This document shows, piece after piece, positions 8,681 through 11,360 of a stretch of 14,689 nt of DNA. A model generated the notes under the pieces. That model was not told the origin of the DNA and did no database searches. It saw nothing but the letters and a program-made list of their open reading frames with translations. Each line of letters opens with the position of its first letter. Position 1 is the stretch's first letter. The position numbers and the translations under genes were made by a program. This stretch comes from a bacterium (GTDB lineage Bacteria > SAR324 > NAC60-12), in contig CBDDTI010000304.1 of assembly GCA_965233585.1 (NCBI GenBank), positions 1 through 14,689 on the forward strand, given 5' to 3'.

Positions 8681-8711
8681 TTTTCAGGTGCCTTAAAGAA
8701 ATCCATTTTAT

Positions 8712-9074
8712 ATGAAAATGGATTTTATACGACAATATCATTGGGAATACGGAACGTCTTCTATCAAGATCAATAACGAGCAATTCGAGCTCACGGGATG
8801 CAAGGTCCTTACTAACGACGATACAAGTTTAAAGTACGGTTACATAAGAGTTACCATAAGGCTCTCTCGCGAAATGATTGGAAGGATGAAAAAACTTGAG
8901 AAAGACGTTAATGAAGTACTCGTCAAAATGGGTTTTGACAAGGTAACAATCGTATATGGAAACAGGGTTTATGCGAAGAAAACAATTCTTGTTCAACACC
9001 CAACTTATATCCAACTCCGGAGCATATACATCAATAAAGAAAAGAAACCGGTCGTCCAGATGTGGCTAGTGTAA
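8712..9074 (+). CDS. Hypothetical protein, paralog A (alternative start at 8718)
   Basis: 120-aa ORF with visible similarity to the next ORF (FELTGCKV; Y..V..RLSREMIGRMKKLE..VN; VYGNRVYA). Confidence 0.7.
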   Translation: MKMDFIRQYHWEYGTSSIKINNEQFELTGCKVLTNDDTSLKYGYIRVTIRLSREMIGRMKKLEKDVNEVLVKMGFDKVTIVYGNRVYAKKTILVQHPTYIQLRSIYINKEKKPVVQMWLV

Positions 9075-9077
9075 CCA

Positions 9078-9113
9078 TTTCAAAACATTACGCACAGACA
9101 CAATGTTTTGAAA
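9078..9113 (+). terminator. Perfect 12-bp inverted repeat just after the stop codon; candidate 3'-end hairpin
   Basis: TTTCAAAACATT (9078-9089), a 12-nt loop, then AATGTTTTGAAA (9102-9113). The function is inferred. Confidence 0.5.
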
Positions 9114-9200
9114 ATATCTCGTTTACAGAAGGTGGTCGTCAGCAACACAATTGAACATTCTCATAAAAAGTGGGTTAAAGAAATGTGAGTGCTACATAAA

Positions 9201-9590
9201 ATGATATCTGAAGACAAGTATATTGAGGACATAGATGTTCACGGCACGGCCGCGGATATGTGGGAGTTCAGTCTCAAGGGATGTGAGATCGATTCGAAGT
9301 TGAGTTTGGACGAAGTTATGAAAATCATAGAACAAAACAACGGTTATCATACTGTTCGTGTAAAACTATCTGATGAGATGGTTGATAAAATGAAGAAGTT
9401 AGAGGAAAGAATTAATAACATACTGCAGAGCCTATTTATAGGTGATTTCGACGAGTTAAAACTCGTACACGGAAACGTGGTTTTTGCGGAGACATGTGTG
9501 AGCACTGTCTATCCCAAGACCCTCACAGTAACGGATGAGTGTGTCGGTGGTAAACTTGAGCCGCCGTTTGTCAAGTTGTCGATTCAGTAA
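9201..9590 (+). CDS. Hypothetical protein, paralog B
   Basis: ATG 9201 is in AAAATG context (the track starts at GTG 9189). FSLKGCEI, YHTVRVKLSDEMVDKMKKLEERIN and VHGNVVFA align with paralog A. Confidence 0.7.
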   Translation: MISEDKYIEDIDVHGTAADMWEFSLKGCEIDSKLSLDEVMKIIEQNNGYHTVRVKLSDEMVDKMKKLEERINNILQSLFIGDFDELKLVHGNVVFAETCVSTVYPKTLTVTDECVGGKLEPPFVKLSIQ

Positions 9591-9603
9591 AAAAAACAAA
9601 ATG

Positions 9604-9632
9604 ATACCATTACGGCGAGGACGTAATGATAT
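9604..9632 (+). terminator. Imperfect inverted repeat downstream of paralog B; candidate 3'-end hairpin
   Basis: ATACCATTACG (9604-9614) and CGTAATGATAT (9622-9632) pair at 10 of 11 positions around a 7-nt loop. Confidence 0.4.
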
Positions 9633-9659
9633 AAAAATATTATCTCGCGTTAATAAAAA

Positions 9660-10943
9660 ATGGATATACTAAGAATTAACGAACACCCTATGGAAGATGC
9701 CAGTATCGAAGATTATGAGCATCATGAGTATGAACCGATCACGGGAACAAATCTCAACAATCCCGGTGAGATCAGGATCAATATCGAAACCCAAGATCTA
9801 TTTACTCATCCGAGTGAAAGTTATTTGATCTTCGAAGGACGTCTGACAAAAGACGATGGACAGGCATATGTAAACGCCGATAACGTAGCATTGACAAATA
9901 ACGGTCTCATGCATCTATTTAGTAACTTCGAGTATCAGCTATCAGGTCAGGAGATTGAGTCCCTCTCTTACCCGGGACAGGGTACAACAATGCTCGGTCT
10001 ACTGAAATATCCCGATGATTTCTCCAAGTCACAAGGTTTAAATCAACTGTGGTATAAAGACACAACAGCCACATCCCAATTAGCGCATAATCACGGGTTT
10101 GCCGCTCGTCAGACTGCCCTCATTCAACTTCCAGACCCCAAGGGTACATTTAGTTTCAGAGTCCCACTCAAACACATTTTTGGATTCTGCGAAGATTATG
10201 ATAAAATTATGTACGGTATGAAACAAACCCTGACTCTAGTGCGGAAATCGGATAATGATGCGATTTATCGAGCCGCAGCCGCCGATGCAGGTAAAGTCAC
10301 TCTTGACAAGGTGTCTTGGTTTATGCCCCATGTACTCCCCGCAGATGCAGAGAAACTTCAGCTATACAAGACAATTGAGTCAAAGGCGTCGTTGCCTGTG
10401 GCCTACCGGATGAGACAATGCGATTCCATCACAGTCCCACAGTCAACAAGTTTTACGTGGAGACTTTCTGTCAAATCCTCTCCCGAAAAACCCCGTTATG
10501 TCATTGTAGGGTTTCAAACTGGCAAGGATGGTGACCAGGAGGAGAATCCGTCAATTTTTGATAATGTAGACGTAAGGAATATACTGGTAATGCTCAACTC
10601 AACCAGATACCCAGCAGTTGACTACAATCTCTCCTTTCCCAAGCAGCAATTCAGTCGGGCCTATGGCGATGCCGCTGCATTTAGATCCAAGTTTTACCGA
10701 ATGGACGAGTTGGTATCTAACCCCAATATCACTCCCCTTGATTACAAGTCGCTTTTCCCACTGTTTGTCTTTGACGTTAGCAAGCAGAGTGAGAGAATCA
10801 AGAATTCAGTTACCGACATTCAGATCAAGGCACAGTTCAATGCCAATGTAGCAGCAAATACAGAAGCATTTGCAGTTGTGATAAGCGATAGGATGCTCAA
10901 ATTGCAGTCTGATGGAAACAAGATGAGCGTCGTTTATGGATAA
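9660..10943 (+). CDS. Major capsid protein (double jelly roll, hexon-like), 427 aa
   Basis: Size and motifs fit a Polinton MCP: SIEDYEHHEY.P, PSESYLIFEG, NNGLMHLFS..EYQL.GQEIE, VPLKHIFGFCEDYDK, EKPRYVIVGFQT, LNSTRYP and PLFVFDVSKQ. Confidence 0.92.
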   Translation: MDILRINEHPMEDASIEDYEHHEYEPITGTNLNNPGEIRINIETQDLFTHPSESYLIFEGRLTKDDGQAYVNADNVALTNNGLMHLFSNFEYQLSGQEIESLSYPGQGTTMLGLLKYPDDFSKSQGLNQLWYKDTTATSQLAHNHGFAARQTALIQLPDPKGTFSFRVPLKHIFGFCEDYDKIMYGMKQTLTLVRKSDNDAIYRAAAADAGKVTLDKVSWFMPHVLPADAEKLQLYKTIESKASLPVAYRMRQCDSITVPQSTSFTWRLSVKSSPEKPRYVIVGFQTGKDGDQEENPSIFDNVDVRNILVMLNSTRYPAVDYNLSFPKQQFSRAYGDAAAFRSKFYRMDELVSNPNITPLDYKSLFPLFVFDVSKQSERIKNSVTDIQIKAQFNANVAANTEAFAVVISDRMLKLQSDGNKMSVVYG

Positions 10944-10978
10944 AGGGTTTAAAGAAACGCTGTCACATATAAAACAAC

Positions 10979-11329
10979 ATGATAAAATTATCAGAATTGA
11001 AAGAAATACTCTATGCAAATAAAATCAAAGGATACTCACATTACACCAAGAAACAACTGATAGAGTTCTTGAAAGAAAGGGATATGATGCCGAAAGAGAA
11101 ACCCAAACCCGAGAAACCCAAAAAAGAAATAGATCCCAAATACGCTAGATTGGCTACGATAAAAAATAACCCCAGACGAGTTACGTTGAAAGATATTGAA
11201 ACGGAAGAAGAGTTAGAGTTTCCATCGATTTACAAAGCGGCCCAATTTCTAAAAAGAAATCCAAATTTGATATTATTTTTGAACGGAAGGGTATGGAACA
11301 ACCTGTATGAGATTAAAATCATGGATTAA
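10979..11329 (+). CDS. Small putative DNA-binding protein (Rho_N/HEH-like N-terminus plus NUMOD1-like helix-turn-helix)
   Basis: KLSELKEILYANKIKGYSHYTKKQLIEFL resembles a Rho_N-like module. VTLKDIETEEELEFPSIYKAAQFL resembles NUMOD1-type motifs. Confidence 0.65.
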   Translation: MIKLSELKEILYANKIKGYSHYTKKQLIEFLKERDMMPKEKPKPEKPKKEIDPKYARLATIKNNPRRVTLKDIETEEELEFPSIYKAAQFLKRNPNLILFLNGRVWNNLYEIKIMD

Positions 11330-11360
11330 CATGTCTTATGCAAATAAAGCATACGACATG
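11330..11360 (+). terminator. Hairpin with AATAAA in the loop, directly after the stop codon
   Basis: CATGTCTTATGC - AAATAAA - GCATACGACATG, paired at 11 of 12 positions. Confidence 0.55.

Follow-up and report, generated by a model that had tools for sequence, protein, structure and literature searches.

Comparison of the window (the whole 14,689-nucleotide stretch of DNA analysed here) with related loci leads us to lean, with some reserve, towards a joint reading in which the box TTAAAGAAA is a conserved non-structural (replication-class) promoter element of a Maverick/Polinton family and the hairpins that follow some of its genes are 3' boundary elements. Judging by how the box is distributed among gene classes, non-structural genes have an expression class of their own that is family-wide, and not peculiar to the element in the window.

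The stretch is an animal-type Maverick/Polinton, a virus-like transposon, that was misassigned to a SAR324 MAG, and its carrier is a marine invertebrate. Its double jelly-roll major capsid protein (MCP; 9660..10943, + strand, with an ATAAAAA box at -29) has the PF21738 DJR-like domain (E 1.8e-54 in a Pfam search of the window ORFs) and at least 5209 homologues, scallop and bryozoan proteins among them. Pfam matches were also obtained for the packaging ATPase (A32/FtsK-type; Pox_A32, E 8e-10) and for the integrase (rve family, E 5e-8, plus a chromodomain), whose reading frame is broken by a frameshift near 3321, where contigs from four runs carry one extra T. The ATPase and structural gene block (3858..8680, +) has seven genes with an ATAAAAA or TTAAAAA box 26-27 nt upstream of the ATG; the ATPase has TATAAGAA at -25. 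On the other strand lies the N-terminal 688 aa of a polB-like gene (3..2066, -) that extends past the contig end and has Rho_N and Endonuclease_7 matches. Neither DNA_pol_B_2 (Pfam) nor the PDB polymerases matched this ORF or its full-length relative in locus L008 (1305 aa); its nearest ESM Atlas clusters (score 0.98-0.95) have DNA_pol_B_2 in 19-47% of members, alongside Endonuclease_7, and motifs picked out by eye may be those of an exonuclease. No adenovirus-type protease was matched by Pfam among the window ORFs, the contig stopping within the polB-like gene, and no RNA polymerase or capping enzyme was matched by Pfam in the 15 ORFs scanned, six of which have no match of any kind in an element that is incomplete. 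A tRNA scan of the window gave none. Short inverted repeats are present (2219-2255 vs 11360-11435), with opposite-strand joints in four runs.

All genes of the window have a box 25-31 nt ahead of the ATG and an A-run adjoining it. The first-pass annotation had placed the structural genes in a different box class from three small ORFs, and this proved correct: the structural genes have boxes of the ATAAAAA type and the three small ORFs have TTAAAGAAA-type boxes, as does the polB-like gene in a form with one change. The two versions occupy the same location relative to the ATG and differ at two positions. ATAAAAAAA is the letter-swap counterpart of TTAAAGAAA between the box versions. Exact TTAAAGAAA is found three times, always on the + strand, at 8693..8701, 9175..9183 and 10949..10957, and nowhere else on either strand; 0.44 copies are expected, and 1 of 200 dinucleotide shuffles matched three. 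When one mismatch is allowed the number is ordinary (13 in the window vs 10.9 expected). The copies stand 25 nt before ATG 8718 of o120 (8712..9074, +; 19 nt before its other in-frame ATG, 8712), 26 nt before ATG 9201 of o129b (9201..9590, +) and 30 nt before ATG 10979 of o116 (10979..11329, +), in agreement with the positions and spacings first noted. The related motif that had been claimed before polB is also there: ATAAAGAAA, one change from TTAAAGAAA, lies at 2089..2097 on the minus strand, 31 nt upstream of the polB-like ATG at 2066.

The association of box and gene class is directly observed in the relatives as well. Among 81 related loci (de-duplicated at 80%, with the window excluded from the box counts), a box with at most one mismatch, starting at -40 to -18, is found at 10 of 20 polB-type starts, which were located with N-terminal queries, at 4 of 20 o116 starts and at 9 of 161 starts of all other gene classes (Fisher p 4e-6; since the related loci are kin, Fisher values overstate the case). 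Exact TTAAAGAAA is present at 4/20 polB vs 0/161 other starts, and 24 times in the 568,734 bases of the relatives. It stands 25-27 nt ahead of six polB-type ATGs (L007, L031, L041, L045, L061 and L075), in lineages whose MCPs are just 65-70% identical to that of the window, and it is also found just past MCP in L006, L007 and L018. The o116 promoters of the relatives have neither the exact box (0/20) nor a G at position 6 (0/7). When only full WTAAANAA boxes are considered, 15/17 polB and o116 boxes start with T vs 11/42 structural ones (p 2e-5), and G is at position 6 in 4/10 polB boxes vs 0/49 others. Counting TAAAGA alone between -50 and -16 yielded 3/21 for o116 and 1/11 for polB, most polB starts being missed. 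No polymerase-type box was found in the enlarged o155-MCP gaps of relatives. Promoter sharing within elements, as measured by the longest common substring, was informative only for L008 (12 vs 5.8) and L019 (23 vs 6.1) and was otherwise swamped by the fragmented ORFs of decayed copies. The counts of boxes and of T-first boxes thus sustain the initial proposal that non-structural genes go with a second class of promoter.

Shared descent together with promoter strength might produce the same pattern with no separate class at all, an explanation that we consider unlikely. In that case TTAAAGAAA and the structural box would be forms of one TATA-like element, TTAAAGAAA being the weaker and both being read by the same machinery, o120 and o129b would be tandem duplicates, o116 and the 5' end of polB would be duplicates too, and low expression would suit proteins that are needed sparingly. 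The first two ORFs are in fact paralogues (29% protein identity, E 1e-13), so the three promoter-ORF-hairpin units are not three independent cases; however, both retain the exact 9-mer despite that low identity, and a repeat scan of the whole window found no repeat linking their flanks. Similarly, o116 and the polB-like gene have a Rho_N-like N-terminus in common, and polB N-terminal queries also match o116-like starts, so box and 5' end may be one joint duplication; against this, the exact box is found again ahead of polB where the MCPs are as divergent as those above, and at none of the 161 other promoters. Since TTAAAGAAA and ATAAAAA are only two positions apart at the same site, and the variants in relatives form a continuum (TTAAAAAAA, TTAAATAAA, TTAAAGGAA), what sets the two versions apart may be strength, not class, but the first-letter T separates the classes in the relatives, and a strength class, even if true, would still be a distinct expression class.

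Two of the three small ORFs are specific to this lineage. Both o120 and o129b are missing from 81 of the 81 related loci, and their location, precisely in the interval that separates the o155 stop from the MCP promoter, identifies the segment with both units (8681..9632, +) as a lineage-specific insertion just ahead of that promoter; in relatives without it the distance from the o155 stop to the MCP start is often 56 nt or less. The suggestion that such units are exchangeable modules is therefore upheld as far as presence and absence go, but no whole promoter-ORF-hairpin unit was seen moving between elements. Homologues of o129b form 35 clusters at 54-95% identity; the same query had no match in 87 other genomes of the MAG's phylum, there is no second copy in its own genome, and viral contigs scanned with the MCP and with the o129b alignment yielded nothing. 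Neither o120 nor o129b has a Pfam or PHROG match, and the fold predicted for o129b (mean pLDDT 42.9) is too low in confidence for use. The third ORF, o116, is a conserved small gene that lies between MCP and polB in relatives; it has a SAP/Rho_N-like N-terminus and a C-terminal domain that resembles the DNA-binding modules of I-HmuI and I-TevI, and its profile found nothing below E 0.1 among PDB sequences.

Each of the three small ORFs is directly followed by a hairpin, as had been reported, with gaps of 3, 13 and 0 nt and z scores from -3.5 to -5.9. Hairpin 1 (9078..9113, +) has 12 perfect pairs and a loop of 12 (-9.2 kcal/mol, z -4.85) and starts 3 nt past the o120 stop; hairpin 2 (9604..9632, +) has 10/11 pairs and a loop of 7 (-8.3 kcal/mol, z -3.54), 13 nt past the o129b stop; hairpin 3 (11330..11360, +) has 11/12 pairs and the loop AAATAAA (-13.7 kcal/mol, z -5.89), 0 nt past the o116 stop. 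A 12-pair palindrome at 8698..8727 (+; -11.1 kcal/mol, z -4.83) overlaps the 3' end of the first box and both candidate o120 start codons, and a 13-pair hairpin lies at 2266-2298, 94 nt past the integrase stop. It is the placement of the window hairpins that stands out, not their number. Hairpins of at least 9 pairs total 11 in the whole window, an unexceptional count (mean 6.7, maximum 16 in 30 shuffles), but in the element part 5 of 8 fall in intergenic DNA (968 of 9294 bases), and 3 of those 5 are the ones directly 3' of the three ORFs. No hairpin was found 3' of ATPase, o259, o192, o129a, o215, o290, o155 or MCP in the window (0/8).

In the relatives, the 80 nt past the stop were searched for hairpins with 11 or more pairs, which were found 3' of 11/18 o116 homologues (0.4 expected), starting 0-29 nt past the stop, and 3' of 10/51 MCP and 2/15 integrase genes; ATPase, o259, o192, o290, o155 and INT pooled gave 3/139. 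At the post-o116 site the location is conserved and the sequence is not, there being at least seven unrelated hairpin sequences that differ by lineage. This turnover is itself a direct observation, and the post-o116 hairpin of L004 is the only one there to reach 10 pairs over 8.5 kb. Compensatory change within the clade-2 hairpin is weak (3 pairs vs 0.9 expected, with 22/500 shuffles reaching 3), and several clade-2 hairpins have a T-run on their 3' side. Hairpins also lie 3' of a fibre-like structural gene in L024 and of o155 in L003, and the box-bearing ORF that follows MCP in L007 has no hairpin of its own. The first-pass finding of no comparable hairpins after the structural genes is borne out in the window, and a tie of hairpins to non-structural genes is supported in part, in view of the o116 counts on one side and the MCP, integrase, L024, L003 and L007 cases on the other. 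The AATAAA noted in the loop of hairpin 3 is not a conserved feature, as neither AATAAA nor ATTAAA occurs in the hairpin loops of 17 relatives (0/17).

The hairpins might instead act as DNA, either as palindromic binding sites, as upstream elements that control whichever promoter comes next (MCP, o129b or polB) or as recombination scars or sites left by insertion of variable genes, with no bearing on transcript 3' ends; we regard this as rather improbable. The 3' arm of hairpin 2 extends into the MCP promoter box ATATAAAAA, and hairpins in L004, L032 and L019 abut or lie near the polB box; given the overlap in the first case and the abutting hairpin of L004, upstream promoter elements are possible. 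Yet hairpin 1 lies ~60 nt ahead of the next box, and the spacing of the hairpins to the preceding stop (0-29 nt) is tighter than that to the next ATG (~25-80 nt). The distal half of hairpin 2 (AATGATAT) is also found before the MCP box of L003, which is without the insert, and palindromes are present in bidirectional INT/ATPase promoters (L019, L020) and in the box itself (L022, L024), all of which would suit a role in DNA; on the other hand, unrelated sequences between lineages are easier to reconcile with a signal read by its structure than with a site bound by its sequence. Hairpins flank variable genes in the window (the insert), in L024 (the fibre-like gene) and in L003 (the o155-MCP gap), which agrees with recombination, but the T-runs after several clade-2 hairpins are as in intrinsic terminators.

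Returning to the reading in which TTAAAGAAA is a non-structural promoter element, we infer that the box acts as a promoter and that the two classes differ in timing. The core promoter would be two-part, its A-rich box lying 25-31 nt upstream of the start codon and its A-run directly adjoining that codon, with (T)ATAAAAA serving the capsid/morphogenesis genes, TTAAAGAAA serving o116, o120 and o129b, and ATAAAGAAA serving the polB-like gene. Recognition of TTAAAGAAA may differ from, or be weaker than, that of the TATA-like structural box, which would give the TTAAAGAAA genes a timing or an expression level separate from that of the structural genes. A single hairpin after o116 would, in canonical relatives, close the rightward gene block just ahead of the polB promoter, and in the window element the inserted o120 and o129b units would each have their own. 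We likewise infer that the hairpins act in RNA, where their role would most likely be transcript stop or processing (stem-loop 3'-end formation or termination) with no read-through into the next promoter. Transcripts made by host RNA polymerase II are not known to end at such hairpins.

The yeast linear virus-like elements pGKL1/2 are an experimentally tested precedent for signals of box plus stem-loop: initiation is directed there by an initiator together with a box that lies 20-40 nt ahead of the ATG, and 3'-end formation by stem-loops close to the stop (median 26 nt, -7.5 kcal/mol) (PMC6211774). They resemble the Maverick in being compact linear-type elements with a protein-primed-type polymerase (a putative one in the Maverick), in the short box 20-40 nt before each ATG with an A-rich initiator at the start, in their stop-proximal stem-loops (~-7.5 kcal/mol there vs -8 to -14 here, some with T-runs) and in the absence of a conserved poly(A) signal (PMC6211774). 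They differ in that their box is ATNTGA and precedes every gene, and in that they encode an RNA polymerase and a capping enzyme, neither of which was detected among the window ORFs, whereas the Maverick has hairpins after some genes only and two box versions (PMC6211774). ATNTGA is at -20 to -40 of 0/13 window genes; it lies upstream of three at other distances (polB -52, -45 and -15; o120 -8; o129b -18).

The hairpin rule of Mimiviridae and the virophage Sputnik similarly involves palindromes directly 3' of ORFs whose structure and not sequence is conserved (PMC4402537; PMC6723459), and the Maverick is a small element with a relationship to virophages. There the rule covers most genes (16 in Sputnik) and requires a giant-virus enzyme (PMC4402537; PMC6723459); in the Maverick the hairpin is found at 0/8 structural genes and the host is an animal. 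A mimivirus-type rule with a hairpin after most ORFs does not hold for this element, as hairpins directly follow 3/11 rightward window genes and those of relatives are concentrated after o116 and MCP. In the Polinton-like virus PgVV-14T, a helper-virus early promoter motif, AAAATTGA, is on a subset of genes that includes the DNA polymerase (in the Maverick, the polB-like gene), and co-oriented genes read as single units; unlike the Maverick box, AAAATTGA is borrowed from a giant helper virus (bioRxiv 10.1101/2022.07.28.501842). In the window the mimivirus early motif AAAATTGA lies upstream of 0/13 genes and the CroV late motif TCTA upstream of 4/13, at scattered positions, which does not match use of a helper-virus promoter. 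Animal Mavericks have no known helper virus.

Nuclear DNA viruses such as adenoviruses have early and late promoter classes, and poxvirus early and late promoters are known for a TAAATG initiator and a T5NT terminator. As in these viruses, replication and capsid genes of the Maverick have different putative core promoter elements, and, as in poxviruses, the ATG is directly preceded by an A-run or resembles TAAATG in its context; the clade-2 relatives display this best. No T5NT was found 3' of window genes, nor was a viral RNA polymerase detected among the window ORFs. The known viral motifs AAAATTGA, ATNTGA, TCTA and T5NT are not systematically present.

It is conceivable, though we think it very unlikely, that this Maverick family is transcribed in the cytoplasm, as poxviruses, the giant viruses and the linear elements of yeast are, and not by host RNA polymerase II. 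The -25 to -31 box, an initiator (A-run or TAAATG-like) that runs straight into the ATG and the nearly leaderless 5' end would then be a virus-type grammar, with two box classes and with stem-loops (some with T-runs) where conserved poly(A) signals would otherwise stand. An RNA polymerase would in that case be hidden among the unassigned ORFs or would come from some helper virus, and with such a helper these Mavericks would live like virophages, as parasites of a large DNA virus that infects animals, TTAAAGAAA being early and ATAAAAA late.

Mavericks/Polintons are common across animal genomes, and the literature we searched has almost nothing on their expression and no description of a separate non-structural expression class in them. 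A box for the polymerase and other non-structural genes, together with a hairpin site that ends the capsid block, would be a concrete, testable regulatory map, and the polymerase-type box may be a way of recognising newly acquired accessory genes. Such a map would bear on the view of Mavericks as viruses with early and late phases, and would give a handle on which polymerase transcribes them.

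The window is a complete contig (C304) of a 12-Mb assembly, and it is a marine-invertebrate Maverick/Polinton that was mis-binned into a bacterial MAG. Pfam matches identify a frameshifted integrase with rve and chromodomain (INT; 2392-3823, minus strand), a packaging ATPase of the poxvirus-A32 type (3858-4631) and a double jelly-roll major capsid protein (MCP; 9660-10943, E 1.8e-54); six further ORFs have no Pfam match. The MCP has at least 5209 homologues, among them proteins predicted for the scallop Ylistrum balloti and for the bryozoan Watersipora subatra. The minus-strand gene at 3-2066, present as its N-terminal part (688 aa), has Rho_N and Endonuclease_7 Pfam matches and is probably polB, judging from its nearest ESM Atlas clusters (score 0.95-0.98), in which 19-47% of members have DNA_pol_B_2, plus Endonuclease_7; Pfam and PDB sequence searches gave no polymerase match, even with the full-length gene of relative L008.

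The first-pass annotation had described a motif shared by three small ORFs named by their length in amino acids, o120 (8712-9074), o129b (9201-9590) and o116 (10979-11329), and all of its coordinates were correct on recheck. Exact TTAAAGAAA occurs three times in the window, on the plus strand only (0.44 copies expected; three were reached by 1 of 200 shuffles), at 25, 26 and 30 nt upstream of the ATGs at 8718, 9201 and 10979, and ATAAAGAAA lies 31 nt upstream of the polB ATG; copies with one mismatch are ordinary in number (13 vs 10.9 expected). When the genes are aligned on their ATGs, a box begins 25-31 nt upstream of every gene of the element, and after the box comes an A-run that reaches up to the ATG. 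The box is ATAAAAA/TTAAAAA at -26 to -29 for o259, o192, o129a, o215, o290, o155 and MCP, TATAAGAA at -25 for the ATPase, TTAAAGAA at -25, -26 and -30 for o120, o129b and o116 respectively, and ATAAAGAA at -31 for polB. The small-ORF motif and the structural box thus occupy the same position and differ in two letters: the former has T where the latter has A at position 1, and G in place of A at position 6. The A-run is fused to the ATG in every gene, as AAAATG in the window lineage and as ATAATAAATG (ending TAAATG) in clade-2 relatives; together with a box at -25 to -31, it predicts almost leaderless mRNAs. Since o129b is a paralogue of o120 (29% identity over 100 residues, E 1e-13) and o116 and polB have a Rho_N-like N-terminus in common, the three small units represent at most two independent cases.

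Related loci, 81 in all and totaling 568,734 bases, were compared. One (L002) came from a scan of genome contigs, and the other 80, the best 80 of 482 confirmed, came from metagenome contigs scanned with an alignment of 21 capsid sequences. Their canonical gene order by tblastn is INT(-), ATPase, o259, o192, (o129a), o215, o290, o155, MCP, o116, polB(+). Gene starts were taken from the N-terminal ends of tblastn hits, and those of polB from three N-terminal queries; a start was left out if it lay less than 60 nt from the end of its contig or if no ATG stood near where one was expected. For the box counts the window was excluded and upstream regions were de-duplicated at 80% identity.

With at most one mismatch and a start between -40 and -18, TTAAAGAAA precedes 10 of 20 polB-type genes, 4 of 20 o116 genes and 9 of 161 others (MCP, 6/54), with a Fisher p of 4e-6 that, like the other class-test values given here, overstates the case because the loci are kin. 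The polB-type class includes a few SAP-type starts right after MCP (L010, L023, L040) that are o116-like and not polB, which leaves the comparison of structural with non-structural genes unaffected. The exact box is found at 4/20, 0/20 and 0/161 of these starts, respectively (Fisher p 0.001). Over all loci there are 24 exact copies, six of them 25-27 nt before polB-type ATGs (L007, L031, L041, L045, L061, L075) and three more just 3' of MCP (L006, L007, L018); the loci with an exact box at either place have an MCP only 65-70% identical to that of the window. Among complete WTAAANAA boxes, T is the first letter in 15 of 17 polB and o116 boxes vs 11 of 42 structural ones (p 2e-5), and G at position 6 is confined to polB boxes (4 of 10; 0 of 49 others). 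A random spread of the motif over gene classes is clearly not seen; two versions of the box, at one fixed position, go with gene class across deep divergence. The first-pass interpretation is partly supported. Its strongest part, the second promoter class tied to non-structural genes, is real and family-wide, and the most fitting description of the box is a polymerase-type promoter element of the family, carried in its consensus form by the three small genes of the window.

Hairpins of at least 9 pairs are not unusually many in the window as a whole (11; mean 6.7 and maximum 16 in 30 shuffles), and they are placed as follows. In the element part, five of eight fall within the 968 intergenic bases out of 9294, and three of these five lie directly 3' of o120, o129b and o116, starting 3, 13 and 0 nt past the stop codons (-9.2, -8.3 and -13.7 kcal/mol; z -4.85, -3.54 and -5.89); none of the eight structural genes has a hairpin directly after it. 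A 12-pair palindrome across the o120 start (8698-8727, z -4.83) and a 13-pair hairpin at 2266-2298, 94 nt past the integrase stop, had been missed earlier.

In the relatives, the 80 nt after each stop and the 11 nt before it (de-duplicated, 20 dinucleotide shuffles each) were searched for hairpins of at least 11 pairs. These follow o116 in 11 of 18 cases (0.4 expected), MCP in 10 of 51 (0.6), INT in 2 of 15 (0.1) and o155 in 1 of 45 (0.4), and none follows o290 (0/34; 0.1), the ATPase (0/12; 0.2), o259 (0/16; 0.1) or o192 (0/17; 0.1); many post-MCP hairpins come from loci without o116 or are palindromes within the next promoter. The o116 hairpins begin 0-29 nt past the stop and are of at least seven unrelated sequence kinds across lineages (window, L004/L032 type, L016, L019, L007, L034, L053, clade-2 GGGAGAG type, L080), so that the site is conserved while its sequence turns over. 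In L004, 8.5 kb contain no hairpin of at least 10 pairs other than the one after o116. In the clade-2 hairpin 90% of cells pair, and compensatory change is weak (3 pairs vs 0.9 expected, reached in 22 of 500 shuffles). The AATAAA loop noted after o116 in the window is not a conserved feature, since AATAAA/ATTAAA is found in the loop of 0 of 17 relatives. Hairpins are not confined to non-structural genes; they also follow a fibre-like gene of L024 (14 pairs, behind a gene with a structural-type box) and o155 of L003 (12 pairs); a box-bearing post-MCP ORF of L007 has no hairpin of its own. The general rule in the relatives is one hairpin that closes the rightward block before the polB promoter, to which the window adds two, one per inserted gene.

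Two promoter-ORF-hairpin units make up the segment 8681-9632, which stops exactly at the MCP box. None of the 81 related loci yielded a homologue of o120 or o129b; in L002, whose capsid is 74% identical, the o155 homologue leads directly into the MCP promoter, and the o155-MCP gap is at most 56 nt in 21 of 43 measurable loci. The o129b family comprises only 35 clusters (54-95% identity), and the capsid protein thousands. This absence, the short gaps and the few clusters argue that the segment is a lineage-specific gain, in which each unit has both box and hairpin. In the hairpin after o129b, the 3' arm has a distal half (AATGATAT) that also stands before the MCP box of L003, which is without the insert. 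Of the suggestion that such units are exchangeable modules, presence/absence polymorphism is borne out by the relatives that lack the insert, but exchange of complete units between elements is not shown. L003, the closest relative among the loci compared (capsid 84% identical), has G+C-rich hairpin-like stretches in intergenic spacers at 2460-2540, 2919-3012, 5154-5200 and 6721-6800, in which words such as GCGAGCGGAGACGAGCC recur; of these, a hairpin search bore out only the post-o155 one. These stretches are absent from the window and look like small inserted units.

Neither o120 nor o129b had family matches, and a structure model of o129b was useless (pLDDT 43). In the predicted fold of o116 (mean pLDDT 81), the C-terminal domain (residues 49-116) resembles the DNA-binding parts of I-HmuI (Z 7.3, rmsd 2.8, 64 aligned), of a DNA-binding protein from Paulinella (Z 6.6, rmsd 1.6, 49 aligned) and of I-TevI (Z 6.1, rmsd 2.2, 47 aligned; next match Z 4.2), and the N-terminus resembles SAP/Rho-N folds (Z 3.4-3.8). 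Because these Z values are middling, they offer no more than a lead towards a role of o116 as a small DNA-binding protein. Long ORFs of L024 (3881-4966), L007 (8735-9970) and L023 (7907-9319) have the MSVDKFG-type N-terminus of the 129-aa window ORF at 6097-6486 and large variable C-terminal parts; they are probably fibre/spike proteins with a common anchor and swapped heads.

Several features concern the window copy itself. Its integrase is split across two frames at 3201-3321, and contigs of four of four runs (read sets) have one extra T behind 3321, so the break is private to this copy or an assembly error. Short inverted repeats pair 2219-2241 with 11360-11382 and 2236-2255 with 11416-11435, that is, DNA upstream of polB with DNA 3' of o116; in contigs of four runs, sequence from about 2136-2248 is connected with sequence from about 11371-11430 on the opposite strand, and these contigs depart from the window past 11484. 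In the relatives polB lies downstream of o116 on the same strand, and with these joints this indicates that the window copy either is an inversion isomer or was wrongly joined at the repeat; those near 2136-2255 and 11360-11484 may be TIR-like. Between o215 and o290, at 7137-7311, stand 14.6 copies of a 12-nt unit (ACGATGAAAATG), and relatives have other short tandem repeats at that place before o290, so the site of the repeats is conserved and their units are lineage-specific. Beyond the element, the flank (11485-14689) is host-like; its ORF at 11552-12685 has no Pfam match and is, by eye, what we take to be like a Penelope-like reverse transcriptase with a GIY-YIG end. Positions 12741-13720 are a high-copy repeat in the compared runs, and the other flank bases are thin or uncovered in three of four. 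A tRNA scan found none in the window. Another contig of the same MAG holds a distant second capsid-profile match (C308:6226-6741, E 4e-6), which may be another eukaryotic-virus contaminant.

We infer that the box would be a core promoter element, that its T/G version would assign genes to a replication/non-structural class with its own timing or level, for which "early" is a conjectural label, and that the hairpins would end or process transcripts as 3'-end signals. The spacing from a TATA box to the start is usually about 30 nt, so if the box is a TATA box, transcription would begin at the ATG or no more than a few bases from it, which would give a leader shorter than is expected of ordinary cap-scanning mRNAs. 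With so little leader, a bolder reading may hold, in which a polymerase other than host polymerase II transcribes the element. The closest tested precedent for a logic of box plus stem-loop among the systems compared is that of the yeast linear virus-like elements. Their initiation and 3'-end formation are directed by a box 20-40 nt before the ATG, an initiator giving 5' poly(A) leaders, and stem-loops with a U-tract (-7.5 kcal/mol) at a median distance of 26 nt from the stop codon (PMC6211774). Other comparators are the mimivirus hairpin rule, used by Sputnik too (PMC4402537; PMC6723459), and the Polinton-like virus PgVV-14T, with an early helper-virus motif on a gene subset that includes the polymerase (bioRxiv 10.1101/2022.07.28.501842). 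The likeness to these systems is one of logic and not of membership; ATNTGA at -20 to -40, AAAATTGA, TCTA and the poxvirus T5NT are none of them systematically present in the window element. In a search of the main text of papers in one literature library, no paper among the matches listed describes promoter classes or hairpins in animal Mavericks, none of the papers containing the motif itself, among the matches listed, concerns such elements, and a vertebrate Maverick phylogenomics study (PMC8097293) uses promoters in another sense only and contains none of the terms TATA, hairpin and transcription. Viral promoters specific to a gene class and hairpins at boundaries are known as a kind; the features described here would be their counterpart in an animal Maverick.
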